Positions 13,106 through 35,580 of a stretch of 35,884 nucleotides of DNA are shown here, piece by piece (position 1 is the stretch's first letter; every line of letters starts with the position of its first letter). The stretch lies in contig DATIET010000269.1 of the NCBI GenBank assembly GCA_035455615.1, positions 1 to 35,884 on the forward strand. The letters are read 5' to 3'. The notes under the pieces were generated by a model. That model worked only from the letters and a program-made list of their open reading frames with translations. It was not told the DNA's origin and searched no databases. The position numbers and the translations under genes were made by a program. This DNA comes from Thermodesulfobacteriota bacterium (GTDB lineage Bacteria; Desulfobacterota_D; UBA1144; Nemesobacterales; UBA2774).

Positions 13106-14608
13106 TTAACGGAGCACCGCTTCGAAATCCCTGACGAGCGCTTTCGATCCCTGGTCTTCAATGCCGCATCTCTTTAAAAGCGAGCCCGCGGTTATCCTCC
13201 CTCCTTCCGACCAGACGCCCTTGAGGAAATCCCCCGCGCCCCCGGTCCTCCACCATTCCTCGTCGAACGATTCCGTCATGAATCGACGGAGTCCGGGCCC
13301 GGCAAGCGCGGCTTTAAACCTGAAAGGAGAGGAGAGCGGAGAGAGGAATTCGGCGATGTAATTCCGTCCGTCGGCTTCGCATTGCGCCGCGCCGTTCATG
13401 ATTTCTGTGAATATTTCGGGCAAATCACGAGGGTCTCCGATTCCGAAGAGCTCACCTGCATAGAGTGCTCGCCCCGCGTCGAGCCTCGCCGTCATGAGCC
13501 GCCTTAGACGGACGAAATCGAGGAAATCCCCGTCAGCGTCTATTTTTAAATGCCTCCTCAACCATCTTGGCTCGCAGACGAGACCCCCGAATAGCCCGGA
13601 GAAGAGGTCTGTGAGCGCCCCGTCTCTCAGGAATACGAATTCGAAATCGTCGTCCGGGTCCGTATGACAGAAGCATAGCGAGTGACCGAGACACCTGAGA
13701 AACGATTCGTAATCGTGGATACCGCCTGCGGGATAAATTGAGATAGCGGTTTCAAAAGGCGGGTTCAGCGGAAGCGAAAAGCCGTCCGTCTCCTTCCCGG
13801 CTCTCTTCTCCGTGTCGGAGCTCAGCTCGCGGGCCGGTGATAGCGCCATGCCTTCGAGAAAGGTCCTCGATAGGACAGCGGGTTCGATATTCGGGAAATA
13901 CCCTCGCAGCTCAGCCGAGTTGAATAAGAACGTCATATCATATACGGAGGCGTCCTTTAGCGGGAGCTCCATCTTTTTTATGAAGTGCCACCCGAGCATA
14001 TCCCGGGCTATGTAATCGGTATCGGTGAGGAACCTCTTCGCCTCCTCTCCGAGGCGCATAATCCCGGTACCGAAAGCCGCATCCAGGAGCTCCCCATAAC
14101 TTCCGAAGCCGAGGGACTCCGCGCATTCCGTCATTATCCCGAGCTTCCTCCGGCAGAGGGTGTTGAGCTCTGATAAGATTTCCGGGTCCACGATCGCGAT
14201 CTCGTCCCTTTTGTGTTTTTTCGGCTCGGATAATAAGGCGGCTTTTGCGGAGCGGAGCGTCAGATTCTTTCCGCCCGCGCGGAACTCGGCGCCCGCTTCG
14301 AGCGCGAGCATCATGTCTGTGGGCCCGGAGGTCTTTCCTCCGAGAATGGCCCCGGCCAGGAATGAGGAAATGAGCCTCTGCCTCGCTCTCTCTTCCTCGT
14401 CTCCGCAGGCGGGTTCTCTGTACGATAAATAGCTCTCGGGCTCTAGGAGCTCTCTATGCGAGCCATAGATATACTTTATGCGGGTCTTAATCTTTCTGCC
14501 GGAGAAATTGAGGAAGAGCTCCCTGTTGAGCTCCGTCAACAAACCGACGCCTTCTGATCTGATGAACCGGACCGTGTCTCCGCTCAATCCCGACACTCCC
14601 TCTTTCAA
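13106..14608 (-). CDS. Hypothetical soluble protein (500 aa), family not recognised
   Basis: Long ORF with codon usage consistent with its neighbours. No TM segment or signal peptide. It only vaguely resembles M3-type peptidase folds, with GHSLCFCH where HExxH would be expected, so no function is assigned. Confidence 0.6.
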   Translation of the reverse strand: MKEGVSGLSGDTVRFIRSEGVGLLTELNRELFLNFSGRKIKTRIKYIYGSHRELLEPESYLSYREPACGDEEERARQRLISSFLAGAILGGKTSGPTDMMLALEAGAEFRAGGKNLTLRSAKAALLSEPKKHKRDEIAIVDPEILSELNTLCRRKLGIMTECAESLGFGSYGELLDAAFGTGIMRLGEEAKRFLTDTDYIARDMLGWHFIKKMELPLKDASVYDMTFLFNSAELRGYFPNIEPAVLSRTFLEGMALSPARELSSDTEKRAGKETDGFSLPLNPPFETAISIYPAGGIHDYESFLRCLGHSLCFCHTDPDDDFEFVFLRDGALTDLFSGLFGGLVCEPRWLRRHLKIDADGDFLDFVRLRRLMTARLDAGRALYAGELFGIGDPRDLPEIFTEIMNGAAQCEADGRNYIAEFLSPLSSPFRFKAALAGPGLRRFMTESFDEEWWRTGGAGDFLKGVWSEGGRITAGSLLKRCGIEDQGSKALVRDFEAVLR

Positions 14609-16106: not shown

Positions 16107-18587
16107 TCAGCCCTGCAGTTTCACTATTCTCTGATTTACGGTATTCGCTTGGCTTTCGTACTTGCCTGAGGCTTTCAGGGTTTCCTCCGCTTGTTTCAGT
16201 AACGGGATGTCCTTCTTCGTCCATTTCCCTGATTCGGTTATCTCGGAAATCCGCTTGGCGAAATCGTCCCTCATGTTCTTCCGATCCGCGGTGAAATCCC
16301 AGTTGTCGAGATAGATGCCGAGCAGCGCCGCGCTTTCCTTGCCGTTGATCGAGGCCGGTATTTCCGCAGCATCCGTTCCGATCCATTTGATAAGCATCTC
16401 GGACTCCTCGTCACCGCCGCTTGCGTAGTGTGCGAGCAGGCGGACCTTGTCCGACTCCTGCGGGTATTTGTATGTGGAGCCTAGAACCATAAGCACGGCG
16501 GTCTTGTCGAGCGGGCTCATATTCCAGAGAGCCTGTCTTGCTTTGATGCGGATTACTATCCTCTTGTTTCTGAGCGTTTCCGCGGCAGCGTCCGCCTCGC
16601 CGCTCGCCGCATGCCCCATATTCCCTAACGCTTCGAGCGCTGCGAGCACGCTGTTCGTATTCTCCGGTTTACTGTCATTCCTGGCTCTTATGAATTCGCC
16701 GAGTCCGGGGGCCTGGTCTGATGCGGACGCGCCCATCCTGCCGAGCGCGGTAGCTGTAATCAGCTGAACCCTTTCGCTCTTATCGTTGAGGAGCGCCGCC
16801 ACATCTGCATTATATTTCCTCGCGGGCTCGCCGAGGCCGAGCAGGGCGTCGACGGCGTTGATCCTCACCTTTTCCGATTCGTCTTTCAACATCGCGGCTA
16901 TCTCGGGTATGTAGGATTCGGCTGGCGGCCCTATCTGACCGAGCGCCCATGCGGCTTCTGCGCGGACGATCTCGTCCGGGTCTTTCAGGAGAGGAGCGAT
17001 TTCAGCCACCTGAGCGTCGGCGCCTGGACCAATCTCCCCCAGGGCTTCGAGCGCCGACGACCTTATGGCCGGGTTTCGGTCCTTCAGGAGCGCCGCCACG
17101 GCGGGGGCCATGGGCCTCCCCTTTTCTCCGAGCTCCCTGAAAAGAAATATCCCAGTACCGCGGAACTTAATTTGCTTCTTCTTCAGTAATCCCACGATCT
17201 CCTCTGACTGGGATTCCGTGAATTCACCTATAGAGGCGAGCGCCAGCGCTGCGTTGGCTCTTATTATTTTATATGGGCCATCGAGTAATCCGATTAATGT
17301 GTCCGTAATCTCCGACCCGCCTCCGGCCATCTCTCTTGAAACGAAGATCGCGTGATACCTGACCGCCTCATTGGTGCTTGTCACCTGCTTCAGGATTTTC
17401 GGGGCATAAGTTTTTCCGGCGTCCCCCATTTCGCTCAGTGTGTTCATCGCCGCAATGCGCACTTCGGGGTAGGGGTCGTTGAGGCGCTCGGCAACCCGAG
17501 GGGCCTTGTCCTTTGCGTTCGTTCCCAGTTCGCCGAGCGCGGCGAGTGCTCCGAGCCTCGCATTGGAGTCGATGTCTTTAAGCAAATACACGACAGCGTC
17601 TATGGTGTCGCTCTGCCCTATCGCCGTCTTGCCTATCGTCGCCGCGGCCTGGTCCCTGACCCTGCTGTTTTTATCTTTCAAAAGCTCTACGACGACGAGC
17701 CTCGAATCCTTCGGTATGTCGCCTATGCTGCCGAGCGCCTTCAAAGCGCTGGTTCTAACGTATACGTTCTTTCTCTTAAGCAGACCTGTGAGCTCGTCTG
17801 CGTAATCCGCAGATACTTTCCCGAACGCGCCCAGGGCAGCGGCCGCTCTCATGACGACGTCCACGTCTTCATCATTAAGGAGTTTCGCGATACCGGCGCT
17901 CTCGGCGGCTCCCGCGGGACCAAGGTGCCCGAGTACCTCCAGCGCCCCGGACCTCGCAGACGGGTTTGTGTCACTCAGCAGTTTCACTATTGCGGGTATC
18001 TGCTGTTCGGCTGCTTTCGGGTTTTTCGAAAGCAGCTCGACTGCGGCCATACTCACCTTGCTGCTGCCATCGCTTAGGAGCGGCACCGCCGCCTCCACCT
18101 GCTCAGGGCTGAGACCGCCTATGTTCCCGAGCGCCTGGAGCGCAGTGTAGCGGATGTTGGGGTCTTCGTCGGTCAGGCTTTTCATGATTACGGGGATCAG
18201 GTCCCTCGAAGACTCTCCCATCCCGCCCGCAGCCGTCAAAGCGGCCCTCCGTATTTGCGGGTTTTCGTCCTTGAGGAGCTGCGGGAGTCCCGGCATATCG
18301 CTCCTTTTCTTCGACTTTGCAAGCTCGTTTATCGCTTCTATCCTGACCTTGGGATCCGGGTCTTTCAGTGCCCGGCTGAGTCCCTCAACCTGCCATGGTT
18401 CGAAAACGGCCGCCGGTTCGATCTCGATCGCGGGCATTTTCTCGGATGCGTAACCCGAAGGAGTGAAAAGGCATGCCGCTGCGATTGATATAGCGAGCAG
18501 CATTATGCGGGCGGGCCGCGGTCGGGGGGTATCCGAAGTATCCGCGCTTCGCTTTTCTGTGTGACTGCAACTGTATGGCAAGCTCAT
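16107..18587 (-). CDS. Exported HEAT-repeat (PBS-lyase HEAT-like) protein
   Basis: 826 aa. AGGGAG lies 7 nt upstream of the ATG at 18587. Signal-like segment RIMLLAISIAAACLFTPSGYA. About 20 tandem units of roughly 31 aa of the form LLKD.dp.VR..A..ALG.iG. Non-repeat C-terminal domain of about 150 aa. Confidence 0.85.
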   Translation of the reverse strand: MSLPYSCSHTEKRSADTSDTPRPRPARIMLLAISIAAACLFTPSGYASEKMPAIEIEPAAVFEPWQVEGLSRALKDPDPKVRIEAINELAKSKKRSDMPGLPQLLKDENPQIRRAALTAAGGMGESSRDLIPVIMKSLTDEDPNIRYTALQALGNIGGLSPEQVEAAVPLLSDGSSKVSMAAVELLSKNPKAAEQQIPAIVKLLSDTNPSARSGALEVLGHLGPAGAAESAGIAKLLNDEDVDVVMRAAAALGAFGKVSADYADELTGLLKRKNVYVRTSALKALGSIGDIPKDSRLVVVELLKDKNSRVRDQAAATIGKTAIGQSDTIDAVVYLLKDIDSNARLGALAALGELGTNAKDKAPRVAERLNDPYPEVRIAAMNTLSEMGDAGKTYAPKILKQVTSTNEAVRYHAIFVSREMAGGGSEITDTLIGLLDGPYKIIRANAALALASIGEFTESQSEEIVGLLKKKQIKFRGTGIFLFRELGEKGRPMAPAVAALLKDRNPAIRSSALEALGEIGPGADAQVAEIAPLLKDPDEIVRAEAAWALGQIGPPAESYIPEIAAMLKDESEKVRINAVDALLGLGEPARKYNADVAALLNDKSERVQLITATALGRMGASASDQAPGLGEFIRARNDSKPENTNSVLAALEALGNMGHAASGEADAAAETLRNKRIVIRIKARQALWNMSPLDKTAVLMVLGSTYKYPQESDKVRLLAHYASGGDEESEMLIKWIGTDAAEIPASINGKESAALLGIYLDNWDFTADRKNMRDDFAKRISEITESGKWTKKDIPLLKQAEETLKASGKYESQANTVNQRIVKLQG

Positions 18588-18913: not shown

Positions 18914-19345
18914 ATGTCCTACGAAAGGGATGATCGGGATTTACTGACGATGTTCAAAGACGGCATAAACAAGGGCCTCAGGGTGATTAATATAAGATCG
19001 AAAGAGGCATACGACACGCTTAAGATCAAAAATACAATCAGGCAGCTCGAGCGCAGGAGGAGGGACGCTGTCTACGATATGGGCGCCTCGGTCTACAGGA
19101 CCTTCACGCACACTGGGAAAATCGTCGAGGATACCGTGGCCGCCAGGTGTGCGGATATAGATAGAATAGAATCCGAGATCGAGGGGTGGCGGGAGGATCT
19201 GAATCTCGTCCATCTGAACGCCCGGAAGGCCCTCGGGAGCGTCAAGGCCCTCGCCAGGCCCAGGGTTGCCGCGTTCTGCGACTGCGGGGCCGAGATAGAG
19301 GAGGGGGCCAGGTTTTGCGGTCAATGCTACAAGGAACTCAATTGA
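18914..19345 (+). CDS. Zinc-ribbon domain protein with coiled-coil N-terminal region
   Basis: 143 aa. GAGGAG 8 nt upstream. C-terminal CDCGAEIEEGARFCGQC (CxC..CxxC) zinc ribbon. Confidence 0.7.
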   Translation: MSYERDDRDLLTMFKDGINKGLRVINIRSKEAYDTLKIKNTIRQLERRRRDAVYDMGASVYRTFTHTGKIVEDTVAARCADIDRIESEIEGWREDLNLVHLNARKALGSVKALARPRVAAFCDCGAEIEEGARFCGQCYKELN

Positions 19346-19492: not shown

Positions 19493-19521
19493 TTGACATT
19501 AAACCGATTACGATATAGAGT
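19493..19521 (+). promoter_or_regulatory. Putative sigma70-type promoter for the riboswitch-led transcript
   Basis: Perfect TTGACA at 19493..19498. TAGAGT follows after a 17-nt spacer (or TATAGA after 15 nt), about 30 nt upstream of the aptamer. Confidence 0.45.
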
Positions 19522-19549
19522 TTGAAAAGATGGGGTCATAAATTTCCAT

Positions 19550-19650
19550 GACCGAAAAGGCAAACCATTCGAAAGGGTGGGACGCAAAGCCACAGGCCTG
19601 AATGCTCCGGGTATGAGCATGATGGCGGCTGGGCCGCCGAAGTCGGGATA
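19550..19650 (+). promoter_or_regulatory. c-di-GMP-I (GEMM-I) riboswitch aptamer
   Basis: 19559..19591 reads GGCAAACCATTCGAAAGGGTGGGACGCAAAGCC. As I recall it, the Vibrio cholerae Vc2 aptamer has GGCAAACCAUUCGAAAGAGUGGGACGCAAAGCC. The single difference turns a U-A pair into a U-G wobble in the GAAA-capped stem. A second stem-loop (ATGCTC-CGGGTAT-GAGCAT) follows. P1 closure is CCGA (19552..19555) with TCGG (19643..19646). Confidence 0.88.
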
Positions 19651-19828
19651 TGCCTTAGTTCTTACTCCTTAACTGTACGTCTAGCTTCAGGCCTAACCTG
19701 CTTATACGGCGTTGCGTAGTCCGTAAATCCTCACCGGGAATGTTTGCCGATATGCCGAAAACGGCTGTATGTCCGGCTCGAAATTCAGGACGCACCGTTT
19801 CCGGGTGGTCGTAAGAGGATAAAGGGAT

Positions 19829-22800
19829 ATGTCGGGCGTAACTGTTTCCGGGTCAGGAAGGGTAAGGGTATCGGCGCGGCTCATAGGCAATGACTGCGAA
19901 TTCTCCTGCGTCGTGCTGGACGGAGCGAAAGGGAGCGGCGGAATCCCGCGCGCAATCCTCGACCAGCTCCGCGACTGTCTCCTCCGAACGGGCATACGTC
20001 TAGACCTCCTCTCCGATTTCACCTTTTTAAACGGACATTACATCGAGCGTTTCGAAGAGCTTGCCGGGGAATGCGTGCTCGGCGTGCTGATACTGGACGG
20101 GCTCGGGCCCGAAGAGCTGTACGAGCTCGGGTATCTGAGGGGCCGCGGAAAATTCATACTCACGTTCGGGAATAAAAATACCGCGGACGCAGATGGGACT
20201 GTTACAAACCTGAGCAGTGCCGCTGGAGAAAAGCCTACCGGCTTCGCTGCATATTCCGGGAAAGAGCAGGATCACGACGATGCGCGCTATTACTGTGACA
20301 AATTCATCAGCCGTCATATGTCTGACATCGCCGGCTCAGGGCCGGACGGGGAAGCCGGTCCGGGCGATCGGCCGGAAACGAGAATCGTGAACGATCTGAG
20401 CCGTGCGCTCCCGGGCGTTATCGACAGGTACGTATCGGATTCGCTCGGGGATGCCGGAAGCGGGGTGGAGGCGGAGAGCCTGCGCGGTTTGGCGCTCAGG
20501 ATATCCGGGTACTTCGCGTCGAGGAGCGGATTCGGAATGTTCGATCTCGACGATATCTACGAAGGGCTTGTATCATGGGAATCCCGGACGGGGCGGAGCG
20601 CCCCTTCGCGCGTGCTCCGCTGTCTCGCTTCACTATACACGGGTCTCGACTCTCCCGGGGCGGGTGAGGACGCCGGGCGCGAGTGCCGGATGAAACTCGT
20701 CTCCATATACGAAAAGATACTCGAGCGGGAAAAACCGGGGCTTCTCGCGGGAGTCACCGCAAAGAGGCTCGCCGACCTGCTCGTCACCCGTCCGTTCGCG
20801 GAAGATGCGGCCGGAGATATCGAGCGAGCGGCCGGGTTATACAAAGAAATCCTGGGTTTTTTTACAAAGGACAAATACCCCCGCGAGTCCGCGTCCGTCC
20901 GCAATAACCTCGGAGCCGCGTTAAACGCGCTTTGCCTCAAGACCGGAGAGCCCGCTTACGCGAGGCAGGCGGTGGAATCCATCGCGGAGTCCCTGTCGTC
21001 TGAAATTTTCAAAAATTCCCCGTACGACCGTGCGCTCTCGTACCGGAACCTCGGCTCCGCATACGCGAGCCTCGCCGTTCACGAAAACCCCCGCGAGAAC
21101 TATCTGAAGGCCGCCGAAGCGCTCGGCATCGCGCTCGACATTTACAAATCATGCGAGCGGCATGACGATATCGCCGAGACGTGCGGAGCCCTCGGGGACG
21201 TATATACGCGGCTAGCCGGGGAGAGCGGCGAGACGCCCTGTTATACGCAGGCATTGAGCTCTTACGAGGAAGCCCTTCGCATATATACGGCCGATAATTT
21301 CCCAGGCGAATACGCGGACTTAATGACTAGGCTCGGCGACGCGCGCGCCTCGCTCGCGCTTAAGCTGGGCGACCCTCATGACTACGAGGAGGCCCTTAAG
21401 GCCTACGGGGAATCGCTCGGCGTTTATACCCGCGAAGGGGCGGCCGCCGAGGCCGACACGCTCAACGTCAGGATAGGCCGTGTCTACAAGGCACTCGGCG
21501 ACAGGGAGGCCGATTCGAATAACACGGACAAGGCGATCGAATATTATGACGAGGCATTACTTTATTACCCTGAAGAAACGGCCCGCGGGGAGCACGCCGC
21601 CTCCGGCAGGAAGCTCGGCGAGGCATTTGAAAGGCTGTATAGAGAGAGCGGGGACGAAACCCATATAAGGAAGGCCATAGCCGCGTATTCGGAAGCGCTC
21701 TACGCCTCGGGTGTCGCCGGCGATCCCGGCACCCGTGATATCGAGCTCGCTCTCCGGGCCCTGTATACGGGGCTTGCGGATCATCTGGAGAGGTCGGGCG
21801 ATCACGAGGGAGCGGCCGAATGCTGCAAGGGGCTTCTCGGTCTCTTAGACCCTCTCGATTACCCGATGGAATACGCGGAAGCCCAGAGGAGGCTGGGCGG
21901 TCTCCTTGCCGGCATACCGAAGCAGTACGAAAGGGCGCTTAATATCGAGCTCGCAATAGATTCGTACAAGGAGGCGCTCGGCTTCTACGTGGAGGAATCC
22001 CATGCGGATGTGAGGAATGAGCTCCGCGGCCTCGTCGGAGGGCTGTTGACGGAGCTCGCCGATTACGAGCCGCGGGACTTGAATAAGAGAATAGGTCTTT
22101 ATCAGGAAGCGCTCGAATATTATCCGTCAGGCCCGTTCCCGTACGAGCACGCCCTTATACAGAAGGCGCTCGGCGGGGCGCATTCCGAATTGAGCTTTGC
22201 GGAAGAGCCTCATCAGAACGCATGCAAGGCTGTGGATTATTATAATAAGGCGCTCGAGTATCTGAGCCTCCGGGAGCACCGCCGGGAATTCGCTTCGGCG
22301 CATTATGATCTGGGTGCGCTCTATGCGCGTCTTTACGATATTTCAGGTGACAGGGAGTTCCTCGGCCGCTCTGTCTCCGCCTACGAGAAGTCGACAGCGG
22401 GTTACACGCCTGAAGAATCGCCTGATGAATACGAGGCGGCCCTGAAAGGGCTCGAAGTGGTGCGGGGTTTGATCTCGGAGACGGAAAGGGCCATGGCCTC
22501 CGGTGACGAGGCCCCGGTCGTGGACGGCCCGGAGGAAGACGAAAAACCGAAAGAGAGGCCCGTGCTCAAGCTCGTCTCGGAAGACGCGCATGAAAGGGAG
22601 GAAGGGTCTGCTCCGGGGTCAGGAGATGAAGACAACGAGATAATAACGCTCGCCCGCGAAGTCGAATTCGACGACCCGGAAGAGGCGGCGGAGTATTTCG
22701 AGGAGAGTCTCAGGCGAATATCGAAAGAGGAATTCCCCGCCGAGTACGCCTCTCTTAAGCTCGGCCTAGGCAGGGTGTACGGGGAGCTCGGGGAAGCTGC

Positions 22801-24370
22801 CGGGGGCGCGAATGACTTCAGAAAAGCGCTCAAGGCATACGAGGACTCCCTCGCGTTCTACACCCGGGAAAATTTCCCTGTCGAGTTCGCCGAGGCCACA
22901 AGCGGCTCAGCCTTCTCGTGGATGCAGCTCGCTGACCAAACGGGGGACATCAAGGGCTACGAGCGCGCCGCCGCCTCATACAACGAGGCGCTCCGCGTCG
23001 TCACCAGGGAGTCAGCTCCGCTCGAGTGGGGAGGGATAAAGGAAAATCTCGGTAACATATACCGCACGCTCGCCCAGATGAAGGGGGAAGCCGGGGAATA
23101 CAGGAAGGCTGTCGCGGAATATAACGAAGCGCTCGAAGTCTTCGGCCCCGGGGAGCACCAGCCCGAATACGGGAGGATTCAAAAAAATATCGGCTTCGTA
23201 TACGGCATTCTTGCGGGGGTGGAAGACCGCACGGAGGATTACACCCGGGCGCTCGACGCGCTGACCAAGGCACTCACTGCTTACGGGCAGGAGGACGCGC
23301 CCGCGGAATACGCTGAGATACATAAGTACTTGGGCATCGCGTATGGCAACATCGCGAGGAAGGACGGCGTGCCGGAATATTACGGGAAGGCGGTAGACGC
23401 CTACGCGAAAGCGCTCTCGGTCATTACGTTCGAGACCTCCCCCAAGGATTACGGGCTCATAAAGAGGAACACGGCTTCCGCATTCGACAGCCTCTCCAAA
23501 TTTTCGGACGCCGCCCAGGACATGATATCCGCGGTTCGGTCCTACGAAGAAGCGCTCGGATACTATACGTGCGAGCGCATGCCCGCCGAGTACGCGTCCA
23601 TATTGAGCGGCCTCGGCAACCTGTACCAGCGTCTCGCCGAGAAGGAGGACGCCTCGGGGAACTGCAGGAATGCCGTCAAGTGCTACGAGCGGCTGCTCAA
23701 GGTCTATAACATAAAGGAATACCCGCTCGAATACGCCGCCACCGAGAACAACCTCGGGATCATCTACAGGACCCTCGCCGAGCAGGAGGAAAAGGGTAAG
23801 AACTGCAAGAGGGCAGTGAACGCGTACAGGGAGGCGCTCAGGGTATATAACGATAAGGAGCACCCGGTACAGTACGGCTCGACGAAGAACAACCTCGGCA
23901 CCGCTTACATGACTCTTGCCGACGTCGAGGATAAGGAGATCAACTGCAGGATGGCGCGGAGCGCGTTCGAGGAGGCGCTCAAGGTGAGGACCATTCAGAA
24001 CTATCCGATGCAGTTCGCTGCGACCCAGAACAACCTGGGTGTCGTCTACAGGATGCTTTCCGAGGTCGAGGACAGGGCGAAGAATTGCAAGAGGGCAGTA
24101 AATGCATACGAGACCGCGCTCATAATTTATACGATCGACAGGTTCCCGATACAGTACGCGACCACGCAGAACAACATCGGCGGGGCCTATACCACGCTCG
24201 CGGAGGAGGAAGACAGGAGCAAAAACTGCGACAAGGCGTCCGAGGCGTACCAGGAAGCGCTCAAGGTGTTTACGAAAAATTCCTACCCGTCGCAGCACGA
24301 GATTGTGAAAGCCAATCTGGAGCTCCTCTGCGAATTCAGCGGGCAGAAGGCTTCGACTGCTGCTCCGTAA
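19829..24370 (+). CDS. Giant repeat protein: N-terminal TIR-like/nucleoside 2-deoxyribosyltransferase-like domain, then two arrays of 47-aa TPR-like repeats split by an acidic linker
   Basis: 1513 aa. AGAGGATAAAGGG precedes the ATG. The N-domain contains CVLGVLILDGLGPEELYELGYLRGRGKFIL (ELGY-type motif). The repeats follow A..Y.EAL.vYT.E.FP.EYA....NLG..Y..LA. No Walker A, signal peptide or TM segment seen. Confidence 0.85.
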   Translation: MSGVTVSGSGRVRVSARLIGNDCEFSCVVLDGAKGSGGIPRAILDQLRDCLLRTGIRLDLLSDFTFLNGHYIERFEELAGECVLGVLILDGLGPEELYELGYLRGRGKFILTFGNKNTADADGTVTNLSSAAGEKPTGFAAYSGKEQDHDDARYYCDKFISRHMSDIAGSGPDGEAGPGDRPETRIVNDLSRALPGVIDRYVSDSLGDAGSGVEAESLRGLALRISGYFASRSGFGMFDLDDIYEGLVSWESRTGRSAPSRVLRCLASLYTGLDSPGAGEDAGRECRMKLVSIYEKILEREKPGLLAGVTAKRLADLLVTRPFAEDAAGDIERAAGLYKEILGFFTKDKYPRESASVRNNLGAALNALCLKTGEPAYARQAVESIAESLSSEIFKNSPYDRALSYRNLGSAYASLAVHENPRENYLKAAEALGIALDIYKSCERHDDIAETCGALGDVYTRLAGESGETPCYTQALSSYEEALRIYTADNFPGEYADLMTRLGDARASLALKLGDPHDYEEALKAYGESLGVYTREGAAAEADTLNVRIGRVYKALGDREADSNNTDKAIEYYDEALLYYPEETARGEHAASGRKLGEAFERLYRESGDETHIRKAIAAYSEALYASGVAGDPGTRDIELALRALYTGLADHLERSGDHEGAAECCKGLLGLLDPLDYPMEYAEAQRRLGGLLAGIPKQYERALNIELAIDSYKEALGFYVEESHADVRNELRGLVGGLLTELADYEPRDLNKRIGLYQEALEYYPSGPFPYEHALIQKALGGAHSELSFAEEPHQNACKAVDYYNKALEYLSLREHRREFASAHYDLGALYARLYDISGDREFLGRSVSAYEKSTAGYTPEESPDEYEAALKGLEVVRGLISETERAMASGDEAPVVDGPEEDEKPKERPVLKLVSEDAHEREEGSAPGSGDEDNEIITLAREVEFDDPEEAAEYFEESLRRISKEEFPAEYASLKLGLGRVYGELGEAAGGANDFRKALKAYEDSLAFYTRENFPVEFAEATSGSAFSWMQLADQTGDIKGYERAAASYNEALRVVTRESAPLEWGGIKENLGNIYRTLAQMKGEAGEYRKAVAEYNEALEVFGPGEHQPEYGRIQKNIGFVYGILAGVEDRTEDYTRALDALTKALTAYGQEDAPAEYAEIHKYLGIAYGNIARKDGVPEYYGKAVDAYAKALSVITFETSPKDYGLIKRNTASAFDSLSKFSDAAQDMISAVRSYEEALGYYTCERMPAEYASILSGLGNLYQRLAEKEDASGNCRNAVKCYERLLKVYNIKEYPLEYAATENNLGIIYRTLAEQEEKGKNCKRAVNAYREALRVYNDKEHPVQYGSTKNNLGTAYMTLADVEDKEINCRMARSAFEEALKVRTIQNYPMQFAATQNNLGVVYRMLSEVEDRAKNCKRAVNAYETALIIYTIDRFPIQYATTQNNIGGAYTTLAEEEDRSKNCDKASEAYQEALKVFTKNSYPSQHEIVKANLELLCEFSGQKASTAAP

Positions 24371-24433
24371 GAGCCCCCCGAATCCGTAAAGTCTTTTTAC
24401 TTTCCCCGCACGACCGAATATAGTATTAAAATC

Positions 24434-24976
24434 TTGAAGACTCCGCTCTACATTCTATTTTCCGTGACCGTGCTTCTCGCGGGCGAACGGGCTTTCGCCG
24501 TGGGGAAGGAAACGCTCGTCGATATAACGGGCGTCGCCGTCGTGGTGGACGAGGTGTCGCCTGCCGCGAGGGAGGACGGGCTCAGTGAGACCGGAATAAA
24601 GGCATTGGTCGAGGATAAGCTCACCAGGGCCAACATCATGGTGCTCGAAGACCGCGAGTGGTTCATGGTCTTCGGGGGCTCATACCTTCTTATCAAGATC
24701 ATAGCCAGCAAGGCCGTGAGTGGAGACAGGTACGCGGTCTACATCGACATGGAGCTCTATCAGACGGTCGTGCTGATGGGGAAGAGGCTCGGGCAGAATA
24801 TCAACACGGCTGCCGCCACGTGGTCCATAGGGAAGCTCTTTTCCTGCAATTCCACAGCGTTGGAGGACTGTGTAGAGGGTACTGTCGCGGAGCTCACAGG
24901 CCTGTTCATCAAGGATTACATAGAGGTAAACACGCTAAAGTGGAAGCAGGAGCAGGAGAGGCTCCAGAAGAAGTGA
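24434..24976 (+). CDS. Small exported protein of unknown function
   Basis: 180 aa. Apparent TTG start 64 nt after the repeat-protein stop. Signal peptide KTPLYILFSVTVLLAGERAFA-VG. Basic, coiled C-terminus (KWKQEQERLQKK). Confidence 0.55.
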   Translation: MKTPLYILFSVTVLLAGERAFAVGKETLVDITGVAVVVDEVSPAAREDGLSETGIKALVEDKLTRANIMVLEDREWFMVFGGSYLLIKIIASKAVSGDRYAVYIDMELYQTVVLMGKRLGQNINTAAATWSIGKLFSCNSTALEDCVEGTVAELTGLFIKDYIEVNTLKWKQEQERLQKK

Positions 24977-25026: not shown

Positions 25027-26355
25027 TTACCGTCCTTCTTCTTTTTCTTCTAAAAACTTGAAGAGCGCCTCGTCTACAGCCTTTTGTATATTCTTTCTTA
25101 TTTTTAATGATTTGATTAAACTCTCTATGTCTATATCAAACTCTTTTTCTATGCTTGTATCCATCTGCTTAACTTTCAGCTTTGCACGTTTTAGCTCGTC
25201 GTCGCCGATTATGATCGTGTACTTCACGCCCAATTTATCGGCACGTTTGAACTGACTCTTTAGGCTCTTGTTGCCATATTCCATCTCGGTTGAGATTCCC
25301 CTATTCCTAAACTCTGAAGCAAGCTGAAAGGAAATTTTCCTTGCCTCTTCCCCCATGTGCGCGATGAAGACCCTCACTTCCTTCCCAAACCCTTCGGGGA
25401 AGGCCATCTGGTGGAGGAGTATGAGCCTCTCCATTCCTACCGCGAATCCGACCGCCGGCGTCCGGGGCCCACCCAGCTCCTCGACGAGCCCGTCGTAACG
25501 GCCCCCGGCGGCGACCGCGTTCTGCGACCCGAGCTCTTCGGTAGTTATCTCGAATACGGTCCTCGTGTAATAGTCGAGTCCCCTTACTATCCCGGGGTTC
25601 AGGACGTAGGGGACGCCCACCGCGTCGAGGCTCTCCTTTACTTCGCCCAGGTGACGGCTGCAGTCGGGGCAGAGGCTGTCTATCATCCTCGGGGCGCGCG
25701 CCGCTGTCTCCCTGCACCCCTTTACCTTGCAGTCGAGTATGCGGAGCGGGTTCGTTTCGAGCCTCCTTTGACAATCTTCACACAGGCGCTCCTTTTCAGG
25801 GGTGAAGAATGCGATGAGCCTTTCCTTGTACTGAGGCCGGCAGTTCTCGTCTCCGAGAGAGCTAAGCTCGAGCTTCAAATATTTCGTTATCCCTATCCTC
25901 TCCAGGAGCCTCCATACCATTGTAATGATCTCTGCGTCGGAGGAGGGCTCTTCGGGCCCCAGGAGCTCGGCCCCTATCTGGTAAAACCCCCTGAAGCGTC
26001 CTTTTTGAGGCCTTTCGTGCCTGAACATCATGCCCGTGTAGTAGAGCTTCGTGACGGGGGATTTGGCCCACATCGAGTTCTCGATATACGCCCTCACCAC
26101 ACCGGCAGTGCCTTCGGGTCGGAGCGTGAGCGACGAGCCGTCCCTGTCGGTAAACGTGTACATCTCCTTCTCCACTATGTCGGTCGTCGAGCCGAGACTC
26201 CGGGCGAATATCTCGGTGAATTCGAGGACCGGCATCCGGAGCTCCGAGTACCCGTGGAGCTCGAAGACGGACTTCGCCTTCTCCTCTATATCGTGCCACC
26301 GCTTGATGTCCTCGGGAAGGATGTCGTGGAACCCTCTTATCGATCTTGCTTCCAT
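25027..26355 (-). CDS. hisS: Histidine--tRNA ligase
   Basis: Class II aaRS HisRS motifs (RGFHDILPED, LRPEGTAGVVRAY, GGGRYDGLV). I place the start at the ATG at 26355 (MEARSIRGF) with AGGAG upstream. The ORF extension to 26511 is Arg/Ser-rich and unlikely to be translated. Confidence 0.92.
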   Translation of the reverse strand: MEARSIRGFHDILPEDIKRWHDIEEKAKSVFELHGYSELRMPVLEFTEIFARSLGSTTDIVEKEMYTFTDRDGSSLTLRPEGTAGVVRAYIENSMWAKSPVTKLYYTGMMFRHERPQKGRFRGFYQIGAELLGPEEPSSDAEIITMVWRLLERIGITKYLKLELSSLGDENCRPQYKERLIAFFTPEKERLCEDCQRRLETNPLRILDCKVKGCRETAARAPRMIDSLCPDCSRHLGEVKESLDAVGVPYVLNPGIVRGLDYYTRTVFEITTEELGSQNAVAAGGRYDGLVEELGGPRTPAVGFAVGMERLILLHQMAFPEGFGKEVRVFIAHMGEEARKISFQLASEFRNRGISTEMEYGNKSLKSQFKRADKLGVKYTIIIGDDELKRAKLKVKQMDTSIEKEFDIDIESLIKSLKIRKNIQKAVDEALFKFLEEKEEGR

Positions 26356-26535
26356 TGCGCTCCTACTAGATTGACTGTATGTATCCCGCGCCGTCCGGGA
26401 CGGCCTAGTTTTACCTGAGATTGTCTCGGCCGCCGGTTTATTATATCCAACACCCGTGGCTATTTCTAATGAGCCCCGGAAACGGGAGGCGGGTCCGCCC
26501 GGATTCGTCAACGGGCGAATATCACCATATAATAA

Positions 26536-31407: not shown

Positions 31408-32182
31408 GGGGGAGGGGATTTCTCTTTTTGTTCTGTCATTGTTGTAGATGTTAAATAATTCGTGGCTGGAATTTTTCTGGATAACATGTAATGAAGGGGG
31501 TTTGTATTTCCCGACATGCACAAACGATTCCGAGCTAGTGAGGAATTGGTCGCGCCTGGTTGAGAGCACGAACGTATTATCCATCCTCCCATCGTTATTG
31601 AAGCCAAATTAGAGGAATCGGTCGCCCTTGCTTATGAGCAACAACGTAAATTCATCCGGCACGACAAATCTTCATCGCTCCTTATGCGGGCGGAATTGAT
31701 AGATTTTCGCCGTAATAAGATATTTTAGCCAGGATTCTGTGCTGTCTTTTCATAAACCATACTACGTGTGTGATTTTTGCTTCTTTCCAGGCTACGGCAG
31801 GCTCCGCCCTGACGAGTCATCAAGGAAAAGAAGAGCAATATATCGCTTTCTTTTGTATTCCGATGGGACAACTTTTGTCCACGAATTACTTGACATCTAA
31901 AATTGCGAGGAACGGTTCTGAACGTGTGCAAGAACCGATGGCCGAAATGACACAATGTGGGGAAGTCCTGTGTAAAAAAGTAACGCATTACCCGATCGTT
32001 TCCTCGAACCCATGCTCCGGGCATCGGTGCGCTCGCATCACCTCTATCGTGCCTGCCATCCCTTAAAGCCTCTGCAGTAAACTCGTCCCGGTTTCTGGTC
32101 GGAGCTAATGTATTAAAACTATGGAATTATTATCAGTACCGCAAGCAGACTTTTGTATTTATAAAAAAGTACTTGAGGCCTG

Positions 32183-32211
32183 TTTACATTTATGCTTAAC
32201 TATAATATAAT
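32183..32211 (+). promoter_or_regulatory. Near-consensus sigma70 promoter heading the low-GC two-component module
   Basis: TTTACA (32183..32188), a 17-nt spacer, then TATAAT (32206..32211). It lies in AT-rich DNA, so a chance match is possible. Confidence 0.45.
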
Positions 32212-32256
32212 AATTTGGGGGTTTCTGTTTTCTTTTATTCTGAGGTGGTCGGAATA

Positions 32257-32484
32257 ATGGAAAAAACTTTAAATTTCGGGGTGGTCCGTACCAAAATTGC
32301 CTTGATTAAACTGACCTGCATGTCAGTTATCTGTGTGTTATATCTTATTAAAAAGAAATTTGGTTCTCACCACTCCATAATACCTAAAACACATGACGAG
32401 GATCCGGATCTATTCGCCAGTGGGGTATTCTTCTCAATTCTATTCTCCAAGCGGTTGATTCCGAATTCTCTGATTACTATTTGA
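32257..32484 (+). CDS. Possible small hydrophobic protein (75 aa)
   Basis: ATG at 32257 with GAGGTGG 8 nt upstream. One hydrophobic stretch (IALIKLTCMSVICVLYLI). No recognisable family. Confidence 0.25.
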   Translation: MEKTLNFGVVRTKIALIKLTCMSVICVLYLIKKKFGSHHSIIPKTHDEDPDLFASGVFFSILFSKRLIPNSLITI

Positions 32485-32519
32485 TACCGTATTTAGAAAG
32501 TTGTAAGGGAGGATATCAA

Positions 32520-32633
32520 TTGCCAGCAATTATGAAAATTTTAGTGTTAGATTGCTTGCAAACCATGCATATACAAACTCCCAATTATCTAACTGGTGGA
32601 ACGAGTTATGTAAGTATAGGGATATGGGTATGA
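32520..32633 (+). CDS. Possible 37-codon small ORF behind a strong Shine-Dalgarno
   Basis: AAGGGAGG (32505..32512) lies 7 nt before the TTG at 32520. An in-frame ATG is at 32532. It encodes MPAIMKILVLDCLQTMHIQTPNYLTGGTSYVSIGIWV, with a stop at 32631..32633. Confidence 0.2.
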   Translation: MPAIMKILVLDCLQTMHIQTPNYLTGGTSYVSIGIWV

Positions 32634-32708
32634 CTAAATTAAATTTAGTAGAAATAAAAAATTTATGAGAGATTCTTGTACACGTAATATCAAGTCGACG
32701 GGTAGAGC

Positions 32709-34958
32709 ATGATAATGAAGGGCATGATTGAGAATACCAAAATTATGAAACCAACTAGTAATGAACCTCTATTGCTCCATCAGAACATCGATCGAAGTAC
32801 CTACAATCTTGTATTTGTATTAAATATTAATTACGAACTTATATTTACCAGTCCCAACCTTGTTAGTGTTTTGGGTTATGAAGCCGAAGGTTTTGTGGGT
32901 ACAAACTTTTTTCAACATGTTCATACTGATGATTGTGAGAGGGTTAAGGCCGAATTTGATAATTCATTTTGGATTATTTCCAAAATAATCGGACAAGATA
33001 ATTATGAACTTAATGTCGGCGACATTTTTAAGTTAACAACAAAAGACCGGATTAAGACTTTTCTACAAAACTATTCTAAAACACTCAGATCTCTGTCTGC
33101 AATTAAGCCAATTATGTTCAGAGTCAAACGAAAGAACGGAAAATGGTGCTGGCTTGAAAGCAGCGGTATCCCTTTTCTTGCGGAACATGGCGAGATCATG
33201 ATAACGATTTCAGCCTGTGACGTCACAGAGCGCATTAAGCTGCAGGAGGCGCTTAAATTTAACTTGAAGAAGCTTAACAAAACAAGAAGGCATGAGAGTA
33301 TCATACGGGCTATTACTCAAGATGTTCACAAAACTATCAATTTACAGGAAGTGTTTGATAACGCTGTTTATGCCATTCACAAAAACGTACTTGGGGCGAA
33401 AAATGTTGCAATATACATAATTGAGAATGGCAATGCGGTTATTAAGTCTCACAATGGATTCCCCGATAGGTTTCTCGATAGAGTAAGAATAATTCCTTAT
33501 CCCAAAGACTACACATGGAAAACGATTATTGATGAGAAGTCCATATACTGTGCCGATGTAGTCAGGGATCCCATAGTCGGCAGAGTGGGAAGGGAGATTG
33601 GAGTTAAAAGTTATTTATCAATGCCTATTCGTTCCAGGAACAGTATACTGGGTGTGATAAATATTAGTTCAACCAAGAAAAATATCTTCGACAAGAATGA
33701 GTTGATGTTGCTTGAACATATAACGCAGCAAATAGAAACCGCTATCAATAATGCTCAAAAAGCTGAAAAGTTAAGAAAGAGTGAAAAACGTTTCAGGACC
33801 CTCTTCGAAAATGTGCCAACCGGGGTTTATAGAATTACTCCTGACGGCCAGATACTGGATGCGAATCCGTCATTCATAGCTATGCTGGGTTTTTCATCGA
33901 TAGAGGAATTGGCCGTAAATGTGATTCAACATCAGCATTTCAGGTGCGATGGTACCTGGGAGGAAGTCAGGAAAACCATTGAGCGGCATGGAGAGATAAA
34001 AGGCATGGAATCCGTATGGAATAAACGGGACGGGACAAAGATATTTGTACTTGAGAATATTACGGTGCTGAGAACAGACGACGGAAATATTTTATTTTAT
34101 GAAGGGACAGTCGAAGAAATTACCGAACGTAAAGTAGCGGAAAATAAGTTAAAAGAGGTTAATTTAAATCTGGAAAAGGAGATCAGCAGAAGAACTGCTC
34201 TACTGATAAAAGCCAACAAATCCCTGCGAAAAGAAATATCTGAGAAGAGGCTGAAGGAAGCCGAACTCGAGAATTCATACAAGCAGCTTCGCGCACTCAC
34301 AACACACCTGGAGTCGGTACGCGAAGAAGAAAGAACCAAGATATCGCGGGAGGTTCATGACGAGTTAGGACAGTCATTGACGGGTCTGAAAATAGATCTT
34401 GACCTGCTAAGTAAGCACCTCTGCGAAAGTGATGACAATTCCCGGACCGGGAAACTCACTGAAATGATAAATAAGATGTCGGCTCTCGTTGATTATAATA
34501 TTCAGTCGGTTCGCAGAATAGCGATGGAGCTGAGACCCGGTATCCTTGATGATCTGGGAATGGTTGCAGCTATCGAATGGCAGGTACAGGATTTTGAAAA
34601 ACTTACCGGTATTAAGTGCATCTTCAGCTCTGAAGCGGAGGATATCCCCTTGGACCGAGAGGTTTCGACTGCCCTATTCCGTATTTTTCAGGAAGTCATA
34701 ACTAACATCGCGCGCCATTCGAAAGCTACAGTTGTAAATGTAAATATAAAAGACTGTCGCAGCGAATACATACTGGAAGTTGAAGATAACGGAGTAGGGA
34801 TCTCGAACGACGCGATGGTCGCTCCGCAATCCTTGGGATTACTCGGAATGAAAGAACGTGCCTTGATTTTCGGGGGTAATGTAAAGATAACAAGTGAATA
34901 TAACAAAGGGACCAAAGTCTCGGTAAATGTTCCTAAAGCGAGGTGCTCTAATGATTAG
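32709..34958 (+). CDS. Soluble sensor histidine kinase, PAS-GAF-PAS-HisKA_3-HATPase_c
   Basis: 749 aa with no TM segments. PAS-like segments near LIFTSPNLVSVLGYEAEGFVG and YRITPDGQILDANPSFIAMLGF. A GAF-like block lies between them. Coiled coil, then H-box REVHDELGQSLTGLK (HisKA_3 type). ATPase N and G boxes (EVITNIARHS, VEDNGVGIS, GLLGMKERA). Confidence 0.88.
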   Translation: MIMKGMIENTKIMKPTSNEPLLLHQNIDRSTYNLVFVLNINYELIFTSPNLVSVLGYEAEGFVGTNFFQHVHTDDCERVKAEFDNSFWIISKIIGQDNYELNVGDIFKLTTKDRIKTFLQNYSKTLRSLSAIKPIMFRVKRKNGKWCWLESSGIPFLAEHGEIMITISACDVTERIKLQEALKFNLKKLNKTRRHESIIRAITQDVHKTINLQEVFDNAVYAIHKNVLGAKNVAIYIIENGNAVIKSHNGFPDRFLDRVRIIPYPKDYTWKTIIDEKSIYCADVVRDPIVGRVGREIGVKSYLSMPIRSRNSILGVINISSTKKNIFDKNELMLLEHITQQIETAINNAQKAEKLRKSEKRFRTLFENVPTGVYRITPDGQILDANPSFIAMLGFSSIEELAVNVIQHQHFRCDGTWEEVRKTIERHGEIKGMESVWNKRDGTKIFVLENITVLRTDDGNILFYEGTVEEITERKVAENKLKEVNLNLEKEISRRTALLIKANKSLRKEISEKRLKEAELENSYKQLRALTTHLESVREEERTKISREVHDELGQSLTGLKIDLDLLSKHLCESDDNSRTGKLTEMINKMSALVDYNIQSVRRIAMELRPGILDDLGMVAAIEWQVQDFEKLTGIKCIFSSEAEDIPLDREVSTALFRIFQEVITNIARHSKATVVNVNIKDCRSEYILEVEDNGVGISNDAMVAPQSLGLLGMKERALIFGGNVKITSEYNKGTKVSVNVPKARCSND

Positions 34959-35580
34959 AATACTAATTGCAGACGACCATCCGGTAGTTCGGCTGGGTTT
35001 AAAATTAATCCTCGAAAAAGAAGCCGACTTTTCTGTGAATAATCAGGCGAGAACAGCTCGTGAAGCTCTTGAGCACGTTAGTAATATGAATTATGATTTG
35101 GTATTGCTTGATATATCGTTGCCTGACAGAAACGGACTCGAAGTATTGCATCAATTGAAAATCGAGCATCCTGAAATTAAAGTGCTGGTCATAAGTATGC
35201 ATTCTGAGGACTTATACGCAATGAGGGTTCTAAAGGAAGGCGCTTCGGGGTATTTGACCAAGGATAGCGCACCGGAGGATCTGGTAAAGGCCGTCAGGAA
35301 AGTCCTCTCGGGTGGTAAATATGTAAGCTCTTCCCTTGCTGAAAAACTGGCTCACGAACTAACAAGTGGTTCTGACCGTCCTCCAGATCGTTTTCTGTCT
35401 AACCGTGAATTTCAGGTGATGTGTATGATCGCCTCCGGAAAGAAAATTAAGGATATATCCAATGAACTTTATTTAAGTGAAAAAACTGTAAGTACTTACC
35501 GTGCCCGGATATTGCTAAAAATGAACTTGAAGAATAATGCCGAAATAATCAGATATACAATAAATAATAAGCTGATTTGA
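34951..35580 (+). CDS. NarL/LuxR-family response regulator (REC plus HTH)
   Basis: MIRILIADDHPVVR start with GAGGTG 6 nt upstream, overlapping the kinase stop by 8 nt (ATGATTAG). Phospho-acceptor context DLVLLDISLPD. LuxR HTH LSNREFQVMCMIASGKKIKDISNELYLSEKTVSTYRARIL. Confidence 0.9.
   Translation: MIRILIADDHPVVRLGLKLILEKEADFSVNNQARTAREALEHVSNMNYDLVLLDISLPDRNGLEVLHQLKIEHPEIKVLVISMHSEDLYAMRVLKEGASGYLTKDSAPEDLVKAVRKVLSGGKYVSSSLAEKLAHELTSGSDRPPDRFLSNREFQVMCMIASGKKIKDISNELYLSEKTVSTYRARILLKMNLKNNAEIIRYTINNKLI

Follow-up and report, generated by a model that had tools for sequence, protein, structure and literature searches.

A conserved riboswitch of the c-di-GMP-I clan precedes the gene for a giant, predicted TIR/NDT-like tetratricopeptide repeat protein in Dadabacteria-like bacteria

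In a stretch of 35,884 nucleotides from a Thermodesulfobacteriota bacterium (GenBank assembly GCA_035455615.1, contig DATIET010000269.1, positions 1 to 35,884 of the forward strand, here called the window), an aptamer of the cyclic di-GMP (c-di-GMP)-I riboswitch clan precedes, on the same strand, an open reading frame (ORF) for a protein of 1513 amino acids (aa). The unit formed by this riboswitch and this gene is real and conserved, and no new mechanism is demonstrated by it. We favor, as clearly the most probable account, a lineage-specific, single-gene, cis-regulated unit, in which a c-di-GMP-I-type riboswitch with a canonical binding pocket is followed by a giant soluble protein whose head resembles TIR and nucleoside 2-deoxyribosyltransferase (NDT) domains and is joined to tetratricopeptide repeats (TPRs). 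An initial annotation of this DNA, made from the sequence without database searches, had proposed a c-di-GMP-controlled module of three parts: the riboswitch, the giant protein, and a small exported protein encoded downstream. Its coordinates and sizes match ours within a few nucleotides, and its starting point, position 19493, is the start of the promoter-like sequence.

Across the whole 35.9-kb window, cmscan returned a single Rfam match above the gathering score, at positions 19550 to 19642 of the + strand. The matched model is RF03167, the c-di-GMP-I-GGC variant of clan CL00126, with 66.1 bits, above its gathering score of 59 (E = 1.2e-13 when the whole window is scanned and 2e-15 for a 601-nt region alone), and the covariance model is covered at full length (positions 1 to 80 of 80). 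Pairing in P1 reaches position 19646, so that the aptamer spans 19550 to 19646. The elements of the GEMM fold are present, namely, P1, P1a with a GNRA tetraloop (GAAA, or GCAA in the orthologous locus L004), and P2. Double compensatory changes are found at five base pairs among the eight orthologous aptamers, in P2 and its distal hairpin. The P1a half is presumably almost identical to that of the Vibrio cholerae Vc2 aptamer.

The conserved cores of the RF01051 and RF03167 consensus lines, the former obtained from two ordinary plasmid-borne c-di-GMP-I riboswitches, are one base apart (GACGCAAAgCc and GACGCGAAgCc, respectively). As deduced from these two lines, the “GGC” label would denote G20/G47/C92, in a numbering that we take to follow the Vc2 structure. 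In Vc2, A47 stacks between both guanines of the ligand. The window aptamer reads GACGCAAAGCC, which puts A at the variant-defining position 47, and comparison with the RF01051 consensus assigns its pocket bases as AAAAG-GC (G20), GACGC-A-AAG (A47), and the GC junction (C92). A47 and G20 are each found in all eight aptamers (the window and seven orthologous loci) and C92 in seven, and the G47 that defines RF03167 is absent from every one of them. The RF03167 model thus appears to win through overall sequence similarity. Because the binding-site bases are canonical, the sensed ligand is most likely c-di-GMP; we know of no established ligand for the GGC variant class.

The window RNA shares with RF01051 the elements P1, P1a with its GNRA tetraloop, and P2, the bases G20/A47/C92, and a location within a 5' leader, in the same orientation as the downstream gene. 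It differs in scoring best with the sister model RF03167, in having a leader without an intrinsic terminator, and in carrying an extra distal hairpin in P2 where the RF01051 consensus shows a CUAA...AUG internal motif, which we take to be the tetraloop receptor. RF03167 is the top-scoring model, at about 64 to 67.5 bits across loci against the gathering score of 59, and the sequence is very near its consensus, but position 47 is A in the window and in every ortholog. The initial annotation had called a GEMM-I riboswitch; the aptamer is a genuine member of the c-di-GMP-I clan, but its best Rfam model is the GGC variant, with pocket bases that are canonical nonetheless. In one ortholog (L005; aptamer at 5554 to 5646 of that locus), the equivalent of C92 is U, giving a junction GU for GC, and G20 and A47 are kept. 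This aptamer may be a natural pocket variant with altered affinity or specificity.

Syntenic loci were gathered through the 38 homologs of the small exported protein, and a metagenome scan added two loci. Eight loci contain the large gene (the window, L001, L002, L004, L005, L006, L033, and L034), and all eight have the aptamer upstream of it, approximately 160 to 190 nt away, with scores of 63.6 to 67.5 bits that all exceed the gathering score. The leaders of the three closest loci are 94% identical, and the aptamer core is nearly invariant in all loci, while the protein identity of the head domain falls to 35 to 45% in L004 and L005; judged by these alignments, conservation is stronger in the leader than in the protein. 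Orthologs of the large protein measure 1353 to 1514 aa in L005, L006, L033, and L034, and the orthologs share the conserved N terminus MSGVTVSGS. The pairing of riboswitch and giant gene put forward in the initial annotation therefore holds: the two are on the same strand, 186 nt apart, and the aptamer recurs in all eight orthologous loci.

A related locus, L003, has the same neighbors (genes for a HEAT-repeat protein, a 144-aa zinc-ribbon protein, the small exported protein, a glycosyltransferase, and two DUF3943 proteins, as well as hisS), with neither the aptamer nor the large gene at the syntenic position. Alignment of its intergenic region (9650 to 10000) reveals a decayed promoter, with TTGATC for TTGACA, and a 5' leader remnant up to approximately G20; homology then resumes upstream of the small gene. 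This pattern is best read as the removal of aptamer and large gene together in one deletion. This joint loss is good evidence that the aptamer and the large gene make up a single dispensable unit, of which the small gene is independent. The aptamer-gene unit appears to be ancestral to a Dadabacteria-like clade of uncultivated bacteria.

The leader begins behind a sigma-70-type promoter-like sequence, TTGACA-17-TAGAGT (19493 to 19521, + strand; 10 of 12 matches in a consensus scan), from which we infer a transcript start near position 19528. In six orthologous leaders, TTGACA is invariant and the −10 element fits TAnAnT. The 3' arm of a hairpin at 19534 to 19553 (+ strand), GGUCAU(N8)AUGACC, shares positions with the 5' strand of aptamer P1. 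This hairpin is kept in all leaders, with the pairing preserved in L004 as GGUCAU/UUGAUC, and could affect switching or the stability of the transcript. In the consensus scan, it was also flagged as a minus-strand terminator-like site.

Downstream of the aptamer, a segment at 19711 to 19749 (+ strand), GUUGCGU...UCCUCACCGGGAAUGUUUGCCG, is complementary to the 5' half of the aptamer (GGCAAAC..CAUUC..GGGUGGGACGCAA, spanning G20 and A47) and looks like an anti-aptamer element, a candidate function suggested by the complementarity. According to RNAduplex, the duplex has a dG of −27.8 kcal/mol in the window and of −27 to −34 kcal/mol across all eight loci; its z scores against dinucleotide shuffles range from −1.05 to −3.2 and are stronger in the divergent loci. 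The segment lies 115 to 118 nt upstream of the ATG in six of the eight loci, 71 nt in L034, and 85 nt in L004, and the blocks UGUUUGCC and UGCGU stand out as conservation islands amid a variable leader spacer. The ribosome-binding region, as read from the sequence, consists of AAGAGGA and AAGGGA (19813 to 19827) and, together with the ATG, covers 19813 to 19831 (+ strand). A consensus scan found no intrinsic terminator on the + strand of the 186-nt spacer between aptamer and start codon, and a classic transcription-termination platform is thus unsupported.

The comparisons establish the aptamer with its conservation and covariation, its occurrence together with the large gene, the predicted fold class and degenerate motif of the head, and the independence of the small gene, whereas the ligand, a switching helix, the level of control, and a scaffold role for the product belong to a proposed mode of action. 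The sigma-70-type promoter would drive a leader of approximately 300 nt that carries the aptamer, and ligand binding would compete with a long-range helix between the aptamer 5' half and positions 19711 to 19749. Expression of the next gene would then be altered, up or down, without an intrinsic terminator, through either translation initiation or Rho-dependent termination, and the TPR-like repeats of its product, approximately 24 in number, could serve as a very large protein-interaction scaffold.

The large ORF (19829 to 24370, + strand, from an ORF call) begins 186 nt past the end of the Rfam aptamer match. Its product matches the Pfam families TPR_12 (E = 6.5e-24), TPR-S, SNAP, TPR_14, and TPR_10; the TPR-S match (PF20308; residues 430 to 493, encoded at 21116 to 21307, + strand) has an hmmscan E value of 9e-15 and scores 55.6 bits against a cut-off of 27.6. 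TPR-like repeats occupy residues 288 to 1509 (20690 to 24355, + strand) with a strict period of 47 residues, approximately 12 units falling in residues 288 to 851 and approximately 12 in residues 946 to 1509. The two arrays are parted by an acidic, disordered linker rich in Gly, Ser, and Pro at approximately residues 880 to 945 (22466 to 22663, + strand), where the register breaks; residues 880 to 960 contain 28 Asp or Glu versus 7 Lys or Arg residues over 81 positions. The giant TPR-array protein described in the initial annotation is thus present with its 1513 aa and regular repeats, but its approximately 24 units are slightly fewer than the 25 to 30 claimed. The last six units are highly alike (consensus YPxQYAxTxNNLGxAYxxLAexEDkxkNCkrAvnAYeEALkVyt), which suggests a recent internal duplication.

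No transmembrane-like segment was found in the large protein (maximum Kyte-Doolittle score, 1.23 over 19 residues), and a soluble, cytoplasmic location, as the initial annotation had assumed, is plausible. Its remark that a STAND NTPase is lacking also agrees with our scans, since neither Pfam nor NCBIfam nor PADLOC detected an NTPase domain (NACHT, NB-ARC, or similar) in this protein.

At the N terminus, AlphaFold2, Foldseek, and motif comparison delimit an alpha/beta domain at approximately residues 22 to 116 (19892 to 20176, + strand) with the motif LILDGLGPEELYELGYLRGRGKF. An AlphaFold2 model of residues 11 to 328 (mean pLDDT, 68.0; head block means, 55 to 85) predicts a four-stranded parallel alpha/beta head in the order strand-helix-strand-helix-strand-helix-strand, with strands at residues 25 to 31, 56 to 60, 84 to 89, and 109 to 114. 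Beyond the head, the model is disordered at approximately residues 116 to 179 and then helical. The top Foldseek matches in the PDB are DNPH1/Rcl, a cyanobacterial NDT, SPARTA TIR-APAZ, RPPT-TIR, and the SfSTING TIR, with E values of 0.018 to 0.16 and a probability of 1.0, and the top 50 are mostly DNPH1, NDT, and TIR chains. Target-normalized TM scores (TMt) are 0.42 to 0.57 for the DNPH1 and NDT chains and 0.18 to 0.39 for three TIR chains.

Sequence searches with the same region gave less. Direct family assignment of residues 1 to 330 by Pfam, NCBIfam, and PADLOC produced no matches. A search of PDB sequences with a 335-position profile returned only TPR proteins, with the TPRs of kinesin light chain (KLC) as the best match, and a head-only profile returned designed coiled coils first, followed by Cap12 (E = 0.33), SinR (E = 1.1), and NDT (E = 1.7). 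On the strength of the model, the assignment of the head as TIR/NDT-like is supported at the level of fold and superfamily.

Relatives of the head extend well beyond the orthologous loci. A word-indexed protein search with residues 1 to 300 found two near-identical relatives, one of them in a metagenome-assembled genome of “Candidatus Dadabacteria,” and an exhaustive HMMER search with residues 1 to 330 found 54 representatives at E <= 1e-3. The common core of this family is approximately 300 residues long and consists of an alpha/beta head, a variable linker, and a helical region that leads into KLC-like TPRs. The head carries the motif [VI]ILDGfRPNVLFE[FY]G[FY]LxGxxKP and a His past strand 1. 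Among 55 family sequences searched against Pfam (E <= 0.01), 28 match PF10137, 13 match PF05014, and 11 share the TPR-S match; the best PF10137 match has an E value of 2.5e-7, and the examples inspected score 20.6 to 23.0 bits against a cut-off of 24.7. Some members are labeled “nucleoside 2-deoxyribosyltransferase” by JGI, and the TIR-like–TPR family as a whole appears to be uncharacterized.

In the riboswitch-bearing clade, the corresponding motif is LDGLGPEELYELG. The family His and Arg-Pro-Asn are replaced throughout this clade, which reads GP[ED]ELY[EQ]xG. Glu99 of the window protein aligns with the family-invariant Glu, which we take to be the likely catalytic residue by analogy with E88/E98 of NDT and with DNPH1, and this position is Gln in L005, L006, P0041, and P0042. 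With the His and Arg-Pro-Asn gone, and with Gln in place of the putative catalytic Glu in some orthologs, the head in the riboswitch clade is probably noncatalytic, and a function in binding or oligomerization is more likely than catalysis. The nucleotide-processing-like head of the initial annotation is therefore retained as a predicted TIR/NDT/flavodoxin-like fold, but cleavage is unlikely, given the loss of the His and Arg-Pro-Asn.

The head resembles PF10137 (Cap12/Pycsar TIR) and PF05014 (NDT/DNPH1) in its four-stranded parallel alpha/beta fold and in a D-G...E-x-G-x-L-x-G-x-x-K motif past strand 3, along with Foldseek and weak profile matches. It differs from them in that Pfam gives no direct match in this region of the window protein and that the conserved residues of the family are lost in its clade. 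In addition, the window domain is followed in the same chain by a very large TPR array, and no cyclase or CD-NTase partner accompanies it.

A genome scan with a nine-sequence, head-only alignment located the wider family at 24 loci (L009 to L032). These include archaea, with Asgard members (Hodarchaeota, Hermodarchaeota, and Promethearchaeota), Methanothrix, and Methanoperedens, as well as bacteria of the Chloroflexota, anammox Planctomycetota, Terriglobia, Nitrospirae, and Omnitrophota. None of the 24 loci has an Rfam family within 1.2 kb or an aptamer core pattern, which confines the riboswitch link to the Dadabacteria-like clade. A survey of homologs for upstream GEMM motifs, as suggested in the initial annotation, thus gives a divided answer, with eight of eight orthologs but none of the 24 wider-family loci having one. 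The initial annotation knew of no riboswitch-controlled TIR-like/TPR scaffold, and our literature search likewise found no GEMM link to TPR or TIR-like proteins. It also found nothing relevant on Dadabacteria and c-di-GMP.

The small ORF (24434 to 24976, + strand; 180 aa, TTG start) lies 63 nt past the large-ORF stop, where the initial annotation had claimed 64 nt, and, as described there, its product is a small protein with a signal-peptide-like start. The N-terminal segment ends at AFA, followed by VGKE; the protein has two invariant Cys residues, no lipobox, and no Cys at +1. A GTG start at residue 11, used in some assemblies to give a 170-aa form, was rejected on the grounds that the amino acid sequence of the hydrophobic N-terminal extension is conserved. 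No match was found in Pfam, NCBIfam, or PADLOC. The confident AlphaFold2 model (pLDDT, 82.5) has PelC (5t11) as its best Foldseek match (E = 1.4e-5; probability, 1.0; TMt, 0.57), with LptE, PqiC, and CsgG ranking next, and the small protein is accordingly predicted to be periplasmic with a PelC/LptE-like fold. Encoded beside a GT4 glycosyltransferase and two DUF3943 proteins, it may form a soluble ring or plug in the periplasm as part of an envelope system. Its predicted fold resembles that of PelC (5t10, 5t11, and 5t0z), the periplasmic ring lipoprotein of the Pel exporter, including the long C-terminal helix; it differs from PelC in having no lipobox Cys, no sequence-level match, and no pel operon nearby.

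Directly 5' of the small gene, the consensus scan found a promoter-like sequence, TTTACT-17-TATAGT (24396 to 24424, + strand), and a block, TTTTTACWTTC...AATATAKT, is conserved there in the window, in L004, L005, and L006, and also in L003. The small gene itself is retained at the same position in L003 despite the loss of riboswitch and TPR gene. Because of this retention, the conserved promoter-like element of its own, and the PelC/LptE-like fold of its product, we place the small gene outside the riboswitch unit; it is a conserved neighbor that is probably expressed independently. The hisS gene is likewise a conserved neighbor that has expression signals of its own.

Several results weigh against the reading of a canonical-pocket c-di-GMP-I-type riboswitch that acts on a single TIR/NDT-like TPR gene. 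The likely ligand is read from three bases only; clan competition in Rfam selects the GGC-variant model, RF01051 is not the best-scoring model, and the canonical call comes from the binding-site bases alone, with one ortholog (L005) having U at position 92. For the expression platform, the z score of the anti-aptamer duplex is modest in the closest relatives, in which 4 to 31 of 200 shuffles are equal. Partition-function models with the aptamer forced or free show no consistent shift in Shine-Dalgarno accessibility over six leaders, since it rises in the window and L006, rises slightly in L001 and L002, stays flat in L005, and falls in L004. Pairing between the anti-aptamer and the Shine-Dalgarno/AUG region has z scores of −3.2 to +1.3 against shuffles; it is no better than shuffles in L004, L006, and L034 and was rejected as a general mechanism. 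For the head, Foldseek E values are just 0.02 to 0.16, Pfam finds no match (E <= 0.1) in residues 1 to 300 of the window protein, and most PF10137 matches in the family fall below Pfam's own cut-off. Finally, the consensus scan found no terminator-like site between the large and small genes, so that cotranscription by read-through is possible.

This last point bears on the proposal that a riboswitch transcript spans both the TPR gene and the 180-aa gene and that the two act jointly as a c-di-GMP-dependent module of three parts. The genes are on the same strand with a gap of 63 nt, they sit side by side in those orthologous loci for which the contig extends as far as the small gene, and the convergent hisS, which was correctly reported to close the region, follows the small gene at 25027 to 26511 (− strand). 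We nevertheless regard such an operon as unlikely. L003 keeps the small gene in place after losing the aptamer and the TPR gene, the promoter-like block 5' of the small gene has been kept in all loci, L003 among them, and in L033 the gap between the two genes is approximately 450 nt. The products would also occupy different compartments, the small protein being predicted to be periplasmic from its signal peptide and PelC/LptE-like fold and the TPR protein having no export signal. We therefore did not retain the 180-aa protein as a part of the module, and the single-gene unit remains the preferred reading.

The genes around this unit are ordinary housekeeping genes of the chromosome, in a stable neighborhood. 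Directly 5' of the riboswitch promoter is a gene for a 143-aa protein with a C-terminal zinc ribbon (CxxC...CxxC; 18914 to 19345, + strand), which is kept in all related loci, with or without the riboswitch unit. An 826-aa ORF whose product is nearly all HEAT repeats and starts with a hydrophobic segment that resembles a signal (16107 to 18587, − strand) and a 500-aa ORF without a Pfam match (13106 to 14608, − strand) are likewise syntenic across all related loci, L003 included. Other neighbors in the window encode a cytochrome oxidase, a bc complex, NDH-2, a BamA-like Omp85 protein, an alcohol dehydrogenase, a bestrophin-like protein, a major facilitator superfamily (MFS) transporter, HisS, a GT4 glycosyltransferase, and DUF3943 proteins. 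The GC content of the region is 0.55 to 0.60, the same as in the remainder of the window, and horizontal acquisition of the riboswitch unit was rejected for this window because of its native GC content and its synteny across genomes. A separate stretch at 32000 to 35580 has a lower GC content (0.36 to 0.44, versus approximately 0.56 elsewhere in the window). It encodes a PAS-GAF-PAS HisKA_3 histidine kinase (32709 to 34958) and, overlapping that gene, a LuxR-type response regulator (34927 to 35580), and this pair may be a recently acquired two-component system.

The initial annotation saw a likeness to conflict proteins, which can be framed as an abortive-infection effector: once the TPR array had detected an invader or a nucleotide made by a TIR protein, the head would break down NAD+ or nucleotides, and c-di-GMP would set the dose. 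The head is related to PF10137 (Cap12/Pycsar TIR) and to the NDT families, the TPR-S match is significant, the family is distributed patchily over distant phyla in a manner that suggests horizontal spread, and the TPR gene is dispensable, as its loss in L003 indicates. The architecture also resembles that of ThsI, an effector of type VIII Thoeris that has a CMP-hydrolase domain and a TPR domain proposed to sense cADPR (bioRxiv 10.64898/2025.12.03.692087). ThsI is, in its architecture, the closest described arrangement found, with a nucleotide-processing-type head joined to a TPR region of a type predicted to detect nucleotides made by TIR proteins, and the window protein matches TPR-S; however, the window locus has no adjacent TIR gene (ThsB) or defense context, the head is degenerate, and the TPR array is far larger.

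The effector reading is improbable in our view. Conserved residues of the family are missing from this clade (the His and Arg-Pro-Asn throughout, and the putative catalytic Glu in L005, L006, P0041, and P0042), and PADLOC (v2.0.0, which predates ThsI) gave no defense-model match for the three local proteins. Among the window neighbors there is no defense island and no gene for a partner TIR (ThsB), a cyclase, or an NTPase. The flanks hold hisS and genes for respiration, a BamA-like protein, and a glycosyltransferase, the synteny is stable, and the GC content is native; the suggestion of a conflict system has no support from this context.

Exopolysaccharide production (Pel, cellulose, and PNAG) is classically controlled by c-di-GMP. 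A c-di-GMP-responsive envelope or exopolysaccharide apparatus could accordingly be imagined in which the TPR scaffold has as its partners the nearby GT4 glycosyltransferase, the DUF3943 proteins, and the PelC-like protein, much as the c-di-GMP-dependent Pel system combines TPR proteins (PelB/PelE) with a ring protein (PelC). The PelC-like fold of the small neighbor and the conserved neighborhood, with its GT4 glycosyltransferase, two DUF3943 proteins, exported HEAT-repeat protein, and Omp85 protein, would suit such an apparatus. However, the TPR protein lacks a signal peptide, and neither a membrane segment nor a beta-barrel was seen in it; the PelC-like protein has no lipobox Cys and no sequence-level PelC match; no homologs of PelA, PelD, PelE, or PelG were seen near the locus; and the neighborhood is unchanged in L003, which has no TPR gene. 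We give this apparatus little credence.

That the aptamer senses a ligand other than c-di-GMP, as a member of the GGC-variant class, is very doubtful: RF03167 is the best-scoring clan member and exceeds its gathering score in all eight loci, and the L005 aptamer carries U92, but the single position that separates the RF03167 consensus from that of RF01051 is A in all eight sequences, with G20 in each and C92 in seven. The preferred reading, a c-di-GMP-I-type riboswitch with a canonical pocket in front of one gene, also exposes an annotation pitfall, in that clan competition in Rfam labels canonical-pocket aptamers “GGC” and the likely ligand is then misstated automatically.

The TIR/NDT-like–TPR family could be a nucleotide-sensing switch of cell fate or dormancy, wired to c-di-GMP by the riboswitch in this clade; we rate this as a speculative and rather improbable idea. 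If it is true, it would represent a new class of c-di-GMP output, in which the messenger sets the dose of a giant TIR-like scaffold, and this output would differ from motility, adhesion, or polysaccharide genes. The value of the finding is limited by the fact that the RNA class is well known, that the link is lineage specific, and that the head is seemingly catalytically dead. Riboswitches of the c-di-GMP-I class mark the genes of c-di-GMP regulons, and here the target is a giant protein of a widespread family. The unit thus provides a first regulatory clue for the TIR-like–TPR family and a first candidate c-di-GMP output in Dadabacteria-like organisms.

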